A DNA stretch of 64,000 nt from a virus (Duplodnaviria > Caudoviricetes): positions 96,001-160,000 of IMG/VR virus record IMGVR_UViG_3300021399_000103; one strand, written 5' to 3'. The position numbers and the translations under genes are program-made. Below, one piece after another: positions 1,469 to 56,366 of this stretch; the stretch's first letter is position 1, and the number at the start of each line of letters is the position of its first letter. The notes beneath the pieces were generated by a model that made no database searches, was not told the DNA's origin, and saw nothing but the letters and a program-made list of their open reading frames with translations.

Positions 1469-1508
1469 AAAATAGGGATAGCTTATTATTTAGCTATCCC
1501 TATTTTTT
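1469..1508. terminator. Bidirectional terminator between convergent genes
   Basis: AAAATAGGGATAGCT / AGCTATCCCTATTTT. Confidence 0.85.
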
Positions 1509-2088
1509 ATTTATGTGGCTTCATATCTTCATCTGTTACAAACAATTCATCATCAATATGATCTACTTGTCTTGATTCGCTCTCTTTTAGAATATGTAAA
1601 GCAATCGCTTTATCGTAATATAAATCACCTTGGCTATTTCCTCCAAGAGAATTGTAGATTTTATGAAGTTCTGTTAATCTATCAAATTGATACTGAGTCA
1701 TTCAACCTTGTGAAATATATTTTTTACAAGTATTAATTAATTGATATTTATAAAAAGTAAGATTTTGTTCTTTTAATAACTTAAAATCTTTTTCTACTTC
1801 TCTTAGATTATTAACAGCTTCTCAATACATCTTTTGTCAATAATCAAATTTTGATTGTGCTTCTGTTTGATTCGCATTAATAGATTCATTAATTTTTTGT
1901 TGATAAGTAGTAATTGTTTTATTAACAATTTCTACAATATGTTTATCAACAGCTTGTTCATCAAAGTTTTTTGCTTTTTGTTCTGTTTGTTCGCCTTTCT
2001 TAACCATACGGTCTCAAAGATATCTAACAGCAAATCCACAGAACGCAATTATAATATAACTAAAAACACTCTCTGCTGTAAATGTCAT
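1507..2088 (-). CDS. Membrane-anchored coiled-coil phage protein of the YxxLGGN type often found beside holins; 193 aa with 4 TGA=Trp
   Basis: GGAGG RBS, ATG 2088, N-terminal TM helix; only TGA interrupts the frame, which joins track ORF 1507..1701. Confidence 0.75.
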
Positions 2089-2142
2089 AATTTTTCCTCC
2101 CTATTTGTCTTATATAATAAAAAAGGCGCTAAGCACCTTTAA

Positions 2143-2667
2143 TTATTCTGACCAATCAAAGCCTTCTTCTTTTTTGTTTGCGGCGATCGCTATAACCGAT
2201 CGGTCAAGCGAGCTCGCGCAAGTCCCAATACAGATACTATCGCATTCATCTTGAGTTGCTTTTACATTATACTTCTGGAGAACAAACTCTTGAGCATTGC
2301 GTTTTTGCTCTGGTCTTGTTCTACCTTTAATTTGTAATTTAGATTTTCAAGTTGAAGAGGGTATAACTTCATAATTTTTATTAAGCTCTACGGCAGTCAT
2401 AAGAACTACACCATAAACATTTGCTAATACTTTGAATGTTTTTACGTTGTTTCCAACAGATGATTGTAATTGTATATCTTCAAAGGCAATCGTATCTATA
2501 TTTCACTCTTGGACTTTATTTTTTATAAAATTATGAATTGTAACTAAACGTTCCCCAATATCATCTTGATTCGTTGTGAGATGACCTCAATCTTTTAATT
2601 CTCCGTTAATAAATACACTTCATCCAGATACTCTACTCGCTTGGTCAAGCGCAAGAATATTACTCAT
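2143..2667 (-). CDS. ruvC: RuvC-like Holliday junction resolvase; 174 aa with 4 TGA=Trp
   Basis: ILALDQASRVSG[W]..IAFEDIQ..PSST[W]KS..DECDSICIG; catalytic acidic motifs intact; absent from the ORF track. Confidence 0.85.
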
Positions 2668-3025
2668 CAATTAAATCCAATAGACCTTCATCATATAGGT
2701 AATCTTCAAAATCATCCCAAAGATCAAGCCTTTCTTTAAATCCTATTGGTTCACAATAAGCATCAAGAAAATCTGAAACTACTTTAAAGTTAGGCTCTTT
2801 TCCAATACTATATTTTGTTGCTAAATTGATCATTGCGTTTTGCACATAAATATAGTCTTGATCTTGTTTTGTTAGAATACCATGACCCCAGTCATCTTTA
2901 TTATGCTTGAGACGTTGAACCAAAACCGCCTGTGCGGGTGTTAGTTGCTTCATCTCCTTCGGCTTTTTCATATTTTTTAATAATACCCTGACCAATTTTA
3001 TCTCCAGCCTCAATAATAATATCAA
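2660..3025 (-). CDS. Hypothetical protein; true start uncertain, 5' part overlaps the dUTPase
   Basis: ORF fills the gap between dUTPase and RuvC; its stop overlaps the RuvC start. Confidence 0.4.
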   Translation of the reverse strand: MILLLRLEIKLVRVLLKNMKKPKEMKQLTPAQAVLVQRLKHNKDDWGHGILTKQDQDYIYVQNAMINLATKYSIGKEPNFKVVSDFLDAYCEPIGFKERLDLWDDFEDYLYDEGLLDLIDE

Positions 3026-3446
3026 CTGGTGATAAGTTAATTACCTGGAAGAAGATTTCACCTTCATTATCTGGATTATTATAGTAATCTCCATCAATAA
3101 TACCAACTCCATTAGCAAGAATAATCCAGTCATTTAATGGGGTTGAACTACGAACAGAGATTTCAAGATAATATCCCTCATCTAATTTACATTTAATTCC
3201 TGTTGGAACCAGAGTGGGCCGTAGTTTAGTTGTTTTTACAATTTGTTTAAGTTCTCCAAGAGGATAAGGAATTTTTGGAGCTACATAGTCAGAAAGGAAT
3301 TCCATTGTATTTTTATACGCAGGAACTATAACAGTTTTAGCTGCGGCAAAATCATATCCAGCACTATGTGCGGTAGCACGAACTGGGAGATTAACTGTCA
3401 CTTGTTCATCTTCAAGATATTTACTTACTATTTCAAAATTACTCAT
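2901..3446 (-). CDS. dut: Trimeric dUTPase
   Basis: SAGYD, RSS, GIIDGDYY, RTGGFGST motifs. Confidence 0.95.
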   Translation of the reverse strand: MSNFEIVSKYLEDEQVTVNLPVRATAHSAGYDFAAAKTVIVPAYKNTMEFLSDYVAPKIPYPLGELKQIVKTTKLRPTLVPTGIKCKLDEGYYLEISVRSSTPLNDWIILANGVGIIDGDYYNNPDNEGEIFFQVINLSPVDIIIEAGDKIGQGIIKKYEKAEGDEATNTRTGGFGSTSQA

Positions 3447-3456
3447 TTATATCTCC

Positions 3457-3711
3457 TTAAATATTGTAATCTACATCATAGTCAACTTTAATATGCTGAC
3501 TTGGCTCTTTTTCTGCATTGAATTTCTTTGTTAAAATTACACGATACCAACTATCAATAACTTCACCTTTTGATTTTTGCTCTTTATATTCAGAACTGTA
3601 TTTACCAAGTTCAAACATAGAAGATTTCTTCGCTTCTTCAATTAAAGTCTTTGCTTCATCATCATTGTCTACACGATAAGTTTCTACTGTGCTAACTAAA
3701 AATTTACTCAT
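3457..3711 (-). CDS. Hypothetical phage protein
   Basis: ORF track, RBS, operon packing. Confidence 0.7.
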   Translation of the reverse strand: MSKFLVSTVETYRVDNDDEAKTLIEEAKKSSMFELGKYSSEYKEQKSKGEVIDSWYRVILTKKFNAEKEPSQHIKVDYDVDYNI

Positions 3712-3967
3712 TAATTTCTACCTCGATTCTTTTTCCATATCTAGCTATACTTTCTTTTTCAATTCTATTTTTAAGTGGTTTTGTATATTGCGAAAGACCA
3801 CCTAATTTTACTTTATATATATGATTTTCATTACAACAAGTTGTAATAAAATGATCTAAGTTTTGGTAAGTTGATTTACCTAATTGTTTTGTTGTTCCAT
3901 CGTCATTTATAATAATGACAGATTGATCGTAATCAAATATATTTATTCCACATCCAATTATTGGCAT
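3704..3967 (-). CDS. Hypothetical phage protein
   Basis: ORF track, GGAGG RBS, operon packing. Confidence 0.7.
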   Translation of the reverse strand: MPIIGCGINIFDYDQSVIIINDDGTTKQLGKSTYQNLDHFITTCCNENHIYKVKLGGLSQYTKPLKNRIEKESIARYGKRIEVEINE

Positions 3968-54527: not shown

Positions 54528-54530
54528 ATA

Positions 54531-54605
54531 TGGAGTCCTGAACGGGAATCGAACCCGTATATTCGCCTTGGCAAGGCGACGCACTAACCATTGTACTACC
54601 AAGAC
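54531..54605 (-). tRNA. tRNA-Gly(GCC) with encoded CCA
   Basis: Cloverleaf. Confidence 0.88.
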
Positions 54606-54609
54606 ATAA

Positions 54610-54693
54610 TCCCCAGAGCCGGATTCGAACCGGCACGACCTTTCGATCACGGGATTTTAAGTCCCGGGCGGCTACCCGTTACGCCATCTGGGG
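54610..54693 (-). tRNA. tRNA-Leu(TAA)
   Basis: Cloverleaf with variable arm. Confidence 0.9.
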
Positions 54694-55160
54694 TTAATTG
54701 TCACTACTTTTGGACTTCTTCAGCACGGCCGGCTCTTCTATTCCGTGCGATTCCTAGGTACCGGTGCTACTTATCCTCAGCGTTTTTATTTTGAGGCACT
54801 TCCTGAGAGAATGTTGTCCATCTTTCTTTCCTACTTTGCAACGCAAGAGAGAATTCGCCTTGTAATGACTTTTTACATATATATTATATCATATTTTTTT
54901 AATTTTTTCAAATAAATTAAGAAAGGTTTAAGCTACTTTCTACGACTTCCTCTACTTTCTATGGTCGAAATTCCGAAGATCATGACTCCTTCTAACCAGA
55001 GGTACTGTTGTATCGCTTCTTCCTTCAGCGACCTCGGACTTGAGGCTGGCTACTCAGGTGGTACCATTTCCTGTTATTTATTACCTTTCCTTAACTTACA
55101 TATATATTATATCATTTATTTTTTAATTTTTCAACTTTTGGATTTTACAATCAGAATTAA

Positions 55161-55361
55161 TTAAGAGTTTTTATTTATAACATATAAAAGAACAATAATA
55201 GTTATTACAAATTCAATAATGAATGGAGATAAGATTACCCACCAACTATAATCAATAACCCCACAAAGTTTCATAGTAATAAGAGATATCTCTAAAGCAT
55301 CAATAAAATTTAAACCTCTATTATTACTATTATTTTCCGATGTGACTTTCCATTTGCTCAT
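55161..55361 (-). CDS. Small membrane protein
   Basis: LKLCGVIDYSWWVILSP-type motif (MKLCG here); GGAG RBS before MSKW. Confidence 0.65.
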   Translation of the reverse strand: MSKWKVTSENNSNNRGLNFIDALEISLITMKLCGVIDYSWWVILSPFIIEFVITIIVLLYVINKNS

Positions 55362-55857
55362 AATTAAATTCTCCAATCTCAATATTTTCATTTAATACTT
55401 TTATAGCTAAATCAGCTTTTTCCGCAGTCAACCCAAGATTATACCAATCAGTTTTTACTAAATGCTTATCAATATCACATTCCTTAAAATCTGGAAAATA
55501 CTCATCATCTAAAACGACCCAGGCTTCTGGTTTATATTTTTGAACAGAAGATTTAATTCCATGACCTCTATAATATAAATCATTTTCCCAAGTGCGATTT
55601 AAGATAGAAAGTCCAACAGCAGAAAATCTTTTATCAATCTCATTGCCAAAATCATCTTGAAAATCTTTATCTAATGGATCTTTAAACCAACGAGTTTTCC
55701 AAGTTGATGTTAAAATAATTTCTGCATTAGTCTCATCAATAATTCGTTTTAATTGTTGAAGTTTATCCTCATCTATACCAACATAAACATCATATATATA
55801 TATTGGAGAGGAATCACAATTTAAAACGCCATCTATATCTAAATAAACTATTTTCAT
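55330..55857 (-). CDS. HAD-family phosphatase (Swiss Army Knife RNA-repair-like)
   Basis: LDIDGVLN, TSTW, VLDD, GL. Confidence 0.8.
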   Translation of the reverse strand: MKIVYLDIDGVLNCDSSPIYIYDVYVGIDEDKLQQLKRIIDETNAEIILTSTWKTRWFKDPLDKDFQDDFGNEIDKRFSAVGLSILNRTWENDLYYRGHGIKSSVQKYKPEAWVVLDDEYFPDFKECDIDKHLVKTDWYNLGLTAEKADLAIKVLNENIEIGEFNYEQMESHIGK

Positions 55858-56102
55858 TCCTATCACCTCTCTTTGTATATATATTATAACATATTTTTTT
55901 ATAAAAATAAAAAAAACTCCTTTCAACAAAAGTGAAAGGAGTTTTATAATTACGCTCTATATTATTAACAATATTAGCTATCACTAATAATAATGATTTT
56001 TTAATTTATTAGTATCTTTTTCAAAACCCAGTTTTCCATATAACAAAATAGGATTTACTTTAATAAACTTCGCCGCATCCCAAATATAGGCATTATTTTT
56101 AT

Positions 56103-56366
56103 CTATTGTGGAGTATCACTAGGAATTGTGTCGCCTGGCTCTTCATTGCTATTATTGCCAGATTCTGAACTTGAACCACCTTCAGCATTTTTTACAGCAA
56201 TTCATTTGCCTTCTCCATTTAAGATATAATTAGCATCTTCTTCTATGATAAAACAAGTGCTTCCCATTCGAGTTGTACGAAGATCAATTTTAGAAAGTTC
56301 GTCTGATTTATCACAAACATAGCGTTTAATTCCTATCTGCTGTTCATTCTTTACAACTGCAATCAT
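56103..56366 (-). CDS. Hypothetical phage protein, 87 aa with 1 TGA=Trp
   Basis: AAAGGAG RBS; GSTCFIIE..YILNGEGK[W]IAV. Confidence 0.6.

Follow-up and report, generated by a model that had tools for sequence, protein, structure and literature searches.

The phage assembled as IMG/VR record IMGVR_UViG_3300021399_000103 is recoded as a whole for TGA, and the stretch analyzed here, a 64,000-nucleotide window covering bases 96001-160000 of its genome, is a module of that phage that is compatible with the standard code. Seven genes in the window carry TGA in frame; these are exceptions inside the standard-code module, not a separate phenomenon or a new gene-selective system. Judged by aligned homologs and by codon exchanges in relatives, TGA encodes tryptophan (Trp), and the phage carries its own UGA-reading tRNA, whose gene is split in the anticodon loop by a group I intron. 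We consider it probable (roughly 0.8) that the window holds the early replication genes and tRNAs of a gut-Firmicutes-type phage that switches TGA from stop to Trp during infection.

Two coding regimes in one genome

The complete genome is a single contig of 176,419 bp in which the first 130 bases recur at the end; the G+C content is 33%. With a greedy open reading frame (ORF) cover, coverage of the whole genome is 77.6% when code 11 is used and reaches 92.0% with code 4, a comparison proposed by an earlier prediction made from the window alone (hereafter the original prediction), and the gain is that of a code-4 phage, in which coding density goes up by more than 5-10% with TGA as sense. The late plus-strand block at genome positions 15-96 kb, which holds giant tail-type ORFs and an endolysin, contains 240 TGA versus 123 TGG, that is, 66% TGA at Trp codons. 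Because this block lies just outside the window, the window seen alone hides the genome-wide use of code 4, and the special gene-selective system originally read from it does not hold. Recoded codons are concentrated in the structural and lysis genes of the late block, and the replication genes of the window are compatible with the standard code.

ORF and family calls place NrdD, guanylate kinase, DnaE, SF1 helicase, DHH, DnaB, AAA_24, LigA, GyrA and GyrB on the minus strand around the recoded genes (5820-33377), all of them free of TGA, as is RNase H. DnaE, NrdD, LigA, GyrA, GyrB and the helicases had been described as using only TGG, and each is intact under code 11. The other ~60 minus-strand ORFs of the window hold ~219 TGG and 0 credible sense TGA. 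Eight apparent TGAs occur in them, of which six lie in N-terminal extensions that exist only under code 4 or in doubtful small ORFs, and another belongs to a TGA-TAA tandem stop at 13867-13872; this is the sole TGA end (13870), recognized from the outset as backed by TAA among genes ending in TAA or TAG. The seven recoded genes contain 25 TGA, as first reported, and 6 TGG on recount, and differ from the rest of the window in TGA/TGG usage at p = 7e-31 (Fisher); if the pooled rate applied, 219 Trp codons would all avoid TGA with a probability of 2e-11. Recoding in the window is therefore as sharply gene-specific as was claimed (25/6 in seven genes versus 0/~219 elsewhere). Strand or mutation bias was considered as the cause of this partition and rejected: codons for Lys, Glu and Gln end in A equally often in the recoded and TGA-free classes, both on the same strand, which excludes mutation bias alone. 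Recent horizontal acquisition was also rejected, since the genes are syntenic in relatives.

Under TGA=Trp the seven ORFs show no other lesion (no TAA, TAG or frameshift) and every one ends in TAA or TAG; under code 11 they are interrupted by TGA alone. Family searches name five of the seven, and all lie on the minus strand. P0001 (1507-2088; 4 TGA/0 TGG), a protein with a coiled coil and a membrane helix at its N terminus, matches phrog_4105/4257, of unknown function; its gene ends the minus block and converges with the holin gene described below. A RuvC-type Holliday junction resolvase (2143-2667; 4 TGA/1 TGG; PF02075, phrog_827) follows, its gene overlapping its upstream ORF. P0003 (5067-5312; 1 TGA/1 TGG) is an 81-amino-acid ORF of unknown function with no family match that starts 16 nucleotides (nt) downstream of the ORF at 5329-5832, which itself overlaps the NrdD gene. 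A membrane helix, a coiled coil and a C-terminal GIY-YIG nuclease domain (PF01541) are combined in the product of 23667-24635 (2 TGA, at codons 3 and 303, and 2 TGG). The product of 27288-28430 (6 TGA/2 TGG) is a Mom-family DNA-modification protein with a C-terminal helix-turn-helix tail; it belongs to PF25680 (1.8e-39; 135.9 bits against a cut-off of 27.1, profile positions 2-202 of 202), and its gene starts after the end of GyrA (2-nt gap) and stops before the start of LigA (51-nt gap). An Amidase_2 peptidoglycan amidase (PF01510) is encoded at 34578-35174 with 7 TGA/0 TGG; the start at 35174 matches the protein on record (P0128), and a longer reading from 35234 includes two extra TGAs. The last of the seven, P0007 (56103-56366; 1 TGA/0 TGG), is a putative 87-amino-acid ORF of unknown function in the tRNA region, without a family match. 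The first TGA falls between codons 3 and 55, and in most genes early, at codons 3, 12, 16, 24 and 25. The gaps around Mom and the RuvC overlap bear out the original description of recoded genes lying inside operons of TGA-free ones.

Alignment of homologs at the TGA columns, another of the proposed comparisons, gave Trp as the invariant or prevailing residue in Mom, apart from one column, and as the invariant residue at four columns of the amidase. Across 26 Mom homologs, Trp never varies at W104 and W135 (YQATNW), predominates at W54, W188 and W378, and is replaced by Tyr in relatives at W24; the amidase columns NDWNH, HYWIGK, KTW and NYWL hold Trp without exception, down to a homolog at 39-41% identity. 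Since the homologs in databases may also derive from gene calls under code 4, TGG codons in relatives serve as the independent evidence, and Mom in three IMG/VR relatives (L007, L009 and L010) has TGG at codons where this phage has TGA. In the metagenome contig L192, the RuvC PSSTW codon is still TGA at 77% nucleotide identity, another RuvC TGA is TGG, and RuvC and P0001 display TGA<->TGG swaps at the same codon together with new TGAs elsewhere. The conserved Trp sites first pointed out at YQATNW and NDWNH were thus correctly recognized. PDB sequence searches with the amidase and RuvC returned matches too distant to judge the Trp columns.

As far as the aligned sequences tell, RuvC and the amidase are recurrently recoded in code-4 relatives, and Mom, GIY-YIG and the membrane protein are not consistently so. 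RuvC homologs carry 4 TGA in G005, 3 in L192, 1 in G001 and none in the standard-code G003 and G004; amidase homologs carry 3 in G005 and none in the standard-code G004. L192 also has P0001 and P0003 recoded, with dUTPase, NrdD and five other neighbours TGG-only, and in its weak P0003 homolog (33% identity) the TGA of codon 29 is preserved and two others are present. TGA occurs in the P0001 homologs of L192 and L193 and in none of the codons of that from G005, the GIY-YIG homolog in G005 (49% identity) has 0 TGA, and a single TGA is present in a GIY-YIG gene of G001. The code-4 relative L007 has at most one TGA in Mom and 0 in the CHAP peptidoglycan hydrolase beside it.

A suppressor tRNA split by a group I intron

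Standard ARAGORN and Rfam searches of the whole genome found tRNAs for 19 amino acids, with no tRNA-Trp and no UCA anticodon. With introns allowed, ARAGORN called a tRNA with anticodon tca at window positions 747-1015, whose boundaries were redrawn to 747-1014 (plus strand). Its 5' exon (747-780) ends at U34, a 196-nt intron (781-976) with G as its last base lies between U34 and C35, and the 3' exon occupies 977-1014. The spliced tRNA is 72 nt long, folds into a cloverleaf of -22.1 kcal/mol, is called 'tca' by ARAGORN, and has the anticodon UCA, an A1-U72 pair and G73; its A1-U72, G73, C35 and A36 are what we take to be bacterial tRNA-Trp identity elements. In L182, a relative whose endolysin is 63% identical, the corresponding place is taken by a 72-nt tRNA(UCA) without interruption, and the splice junction is fixed because the spliced anticodon loop, CUUCAAC, is identical to that of this intron-less tRNA. 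The suppressor of the recoded stop, which the original prediction had only postulated, is thus encoded by the phage itself.

Group I introns are known from the anticodon loops of bacterial tRNAs, for example tRNA-Leu(UAA), at position 34/35. The present intron is like these in its 34/35 insertion, a 5' exon ending in U, a terminal G, a length of 196 nt, the lack of an internal ORF, and the presence of core motifs (GUAGAGACUAGA and GAAGAUAUAGUCC); it is unlike them in that the host gene is a phage opal-suppressor tRNA and in that its Rfam score falls below the curated cut-off, the match to RF00028 being weak (22.7 bits, E = 8.5e-4 in a 371-nt search; gathering threshold 50). The same split tRNA gene is present in four metagenome contigs. 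In their alignment under a hand-drawn structure (P2-P9 with the P3/P7 pseudoknot, plus the tRNA arms), 99.2% of cells are paired, and seven compensatory pairs occur (in P2, P3, P7, P8 and P9, with two in P7) versus 0-1 in slid controls; drawn from four distinct sequences only, this covariation supports the intron fold but does not prove it. A P3-P7 core and peripheral helices with covariation, a U before the 5' splice site and a terminal G are the marks of a group I intron, and all are seen here. Searches of IMG/VR with exact and gapped DNA patterns of the split tRNA gave no further match, and BLAST of the intron against GenBank phages gave two short core matches only. An intron of this kind can hide a suppressor tRNA from standard finders, which would explain why many recoded phages seem to be without one.

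The split tRNA belongs to a plus-strand unit with the order terminator-like hairpin, promoter, 58-amino-acid ORF, Hsp20-like ORF, hairpin, split tRNA, holin, terminator, and the endolysin gene (11 TGA) lies just upstream. The promoter (98-126), directly after the first hairpin, is sigma-70-like (TTGACT, 17 nt, TATAAT) and is kept in L191 and L193. Directly behind it are the conserved 58-amino-acid ORF (150-326) and an ORF for a small Hsp20-like protein (337-714; weak HSP20 match), which show 83-90% amino-acid identity in relatives. The holin (1059-1466; phrog_13712, 4.5e-23) has zero Trp codons and is followed by a 17-bp bidirectional terminator (1467-1508). As neither of the other two ORFs contains TGA, the unit is readable under the host code.

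Other candidate tRNAs were examined and set aside. ARAGORN with lowered thresholds called tRNA-Trp(CCA) at genome positions 143983-144053 and 93035-93117; both have poor arms and are noise. A tRNA-like sequence seen by Rfam only (46 bits), at 45483-45555 on the minus strand, was rejected as a UGA reader for its anticodon UCC and three acceptor-stem mismatches; with the loop AUUCCAA, it is a second, possibly degenerate, Gly-type tRNA within the tRNA array. Separately, a standard-code relative (L167, IMGVR_UViG_3300045988_174305) has tRNA-like pieces at 1340-1650 that ARAGORN missed, among them a 3' end ...CTCTCCCCTGCCA and, 5 nt on, a 5' half AGGGGAGTAGTTCAG..., resembling the acceptor arm of the suppressor.

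Known recoded phages and competing explanations

A TGA partition of this form has been described in recoded gut phages by Borges et al. (bioRxiv 10.1101/2021.08.26.457843; Nat Microbiol 2022), and the concentration of recoding in late and lysis genes that the original prediction called established matches that work. The Agate phages of that study show preferential recoding of a group I intron endonuclease that is inserted in an early gene, with an expected delay of its production, and a strongly recoded single-pass membrane protein lies in the lysis cassette; a Jade phage has a 'code change module' of suppressor tRNA, tryptophanyl-tRNA synthetase (TrpRS) and release factor 1 (RF1) upstream of its lysis cassette (bioRxiv 10.1101/2021.08.26.457843). 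The idea of silencing genes within early operons therefore has a published precedent, in a recoded endonuclease within an early gene for which the same explanation was given. Like the Agate phages, the present phage reads TGA as Trp, has recoded structural and lysis genes beside replication genes in the standard code, has a recoded endonuclease in an early gene and a recoded single-pass membrane protein adjoining the lysis genes, points to a Firmicutes-type host and has a low GC content. Unlike them, it has a genome of 176 kb versus about 127 kb, its early-module recoded genes include RuvC, Mom and a second amidase, and its suppressor tRNA, interrupted by an intron, escapes standard tRNA finders; the likeness is one of described features. 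As in the Jade module, a suppressor tRNA sits in a standard-code-readable unit adjoining lysis genes; in place of TrpRS and RF1, the unit here has the 58-amino-acid ORF, the Hsp20-like protein and the holin. This phage adds two things to the known pattern: RuvC and amidase genes that are recurrently recoded inside the replication module, and the surroundings of the hidden suppressor.

In the reading we favor, genes needed from the start of infection would use TGA neither as sense nor as sole stop and so would be read alike under both codes, and genes needed only after the switch would be free to use TGA, drifting under AT pressure to about 80% TGA at Trp codons. Before the switch, ribosomes would halt at the first TGA (codons 3 to 55) of the seven embedded genes, and full-length products would appear only once the phage tRNA(UCA) is available. 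That tRNA would be made from the TGA-free, holin-bearing unit behind the sigma-70-like promoter, after removal of the group I intron. Because the operons around Mom and RuvC are tight, translation is the only level that could separate these embedded genes from their neighbours, and we take delayed translation to be a real consequence of recoding. There is good support for purifying selection that keeps TGA out of early genes.

Several points weigh against a code switch during infection. The code, its partition, the structure of the tRNA with its intron and the recurrence of recoding in relatives are documented above; the order of events, the code of the host and the usefulness of a delay are deduced from sequence and stand less firmly. 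Promoter sequence gives no timing, because the late-block intergenic regions have only extended -10 sigma-70-like sites that look to be of the same type as the suppressor promoter; a search of the late block for a distinct late promoter motif found none. No gene for an RF-1-domain protein (RF1 or RF2-related), a class Ib synthetase or TrpRS was found in the genome that would account for the outcompeting of host RF2. The counts also come from a greedy ORF caller, which is crude.

The firmer form of the original argument was that single dangerous genes are silenced until the suppressor accumulates, that is, that the TGAs of the seven genes are positively selected as a dedicated single-gene safety lock on products harmful when made early. 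Of the seven products, four or five could plausibly do harm or act late (resolvase, amidase, Mom, nuclease), the first TGA falls early in most of the genes, tight operons leave translation as the sole differential control, and RuvC and amidase are recoded again in code-4 relatives. The mom gene of phage Mu is toxic and is controlled translationally by Com; it offers a parallel in a Mom-family gene held back in translation separately from transcription, as would be the case here, with the differences that in-frame stops and a suppressor tRNA replace an RNA-binding activator and that Mom homologs in related code-4 phages are barely recoded. The codon counts agree with drift. With a TGA share of 0.81 at their Trp codons, the seven genes match the neutral bias toward A-ending codons for Lys, Glu and Gln (0.82-0.87), so that relaxed selection with AT pressure suffices as an explanation, and the share is not significantly above that of the late block (p = 0.08). 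A second GIY-YIG nuclease in the window (18933-19571, minus strand; 5 TGG, 0 TGA) is a counter-example to the gating of all dangerous genes, as is the CHAP hydrolase without TGA in the code-4 relative; homologs of Mom, GIY-YIG and P0001 in code-4 relatives carry 0-1 TGA, and two of the seven genes are unknown small ORFs. The proposed comparison of TGA/TGG ratios with function accordingly gave a divided answer, favorable in RuvC and the amidase and unfavorable in the second nuclease, and the silencing of dangerous genes draws support from recurrence in the former two and fails as a general rule. We regard a dedicated safety lock across the seven genes as a tentative proposal, less probable than drift after the switch; positive selection may act on RuvC and the amidase, and in the remaining genes it is unproven. 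A broader form, which we hold to be more doubtful still, is that late functions may be timed mainly by the code switch rather than by the class of promoter, with the standard-code unit of promoter, 58-amino-acid ORF, Hsp20-like protein, split tRNA and holin timing all TGA genes, and with selection keeping RuvC and the amidase recoded so that DNA- and wall-cutting could not precede the switch.

A host that itself uses code 4, with tRNA(UCA) as an ordinary phage Trp tRNA and the TGA-free genes stemming from, for example, recent acquisition, would account for a phage tRNA set that covers the other 19 amino acids and has UCA in its sole Trp-type member, and for a phage with no release factor or TrpRS gene. 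Such a host, of the Mollicutes type, would be expected to leave TGA in genes regardless of class; TGA use is instead bimodal, at 0/~219 Trp codons against 66-81% elsewhere, which argues against a natively code-4 host and is not the random spread that the original prediction had named as its refutation. At 33% GC, some 60 genes with ~219 Trp codons and no TGA are unexpected under this explanation, other members of the family seem to use the standard code or possibly code 15, and the closest homologs, both cellular and phage, belong to standard-code Firmicutes. We consider it very improbable. Least credible of all, to the point of being negligible, is that the seven ORFs are decaying pseudogenes or that TGA stands for Gly, Cys or Sec: nothing beyond the in-frame stops themselves speaks for it, TGA alone interrupts the ORFs, the TGAs sit at invariant Trp columns and swap with TGG in relatives, and the tRNA carries the presumed tRNA-Trp identity elements.

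The switch from stop to Trp during infection, which remains our preferred explanation, makes this a clean, fully assembled two-regime phage in which the boundary between regimes runs through single operons (GyrA, Mom, LigA). It allows a sharp test of whether in-frame stops time protein output independently of transcription. For annotation, code-4 gene calling is needed even where a local region looks standard-code.

Host affinities and further features of the window

Besides the replication genes, the window encodes an RNA ligase, a full-length sigma-70-family protein, a permease, and 27 tRNA genes with a tmRNA. The permease, of the xanthine/uracil type (49201-50478, minus strand), has its nearest cellular homologs among gut Firmicutes (gut Clostridia and Erysipelotrichaceae, 55-61% identity), and the nearest cultured relatives of DnaE are Enterococcus and Bacillus SPbeta-type phages. 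The phage family may include three genetic codes. One member, L008 (IMGVR_UViG_3300021387_001593), has its best ORF cover with TAG as sense (0.91 vs 0.84 under code 11).

The sigma-70-family gene (38698-39741, minus strand) has regions 1.2, 2, 3 and 4 and lies inside the TGA-free module. Near the tRNA array is an RNA-repair-like set of minus-strand genes (35920-38625, 42198-43736 and 55330-55929), with a metallophosphatase, a T4 Rnl1-type RNA ligase, a DUF2828/DUF7788 protein and a HAD_SAK_2 domain protein as its members. The tmRNA (51274-51625, minus strand; Rfam, 62 bits) has an unusual predicted tag ending in ...VALAC.

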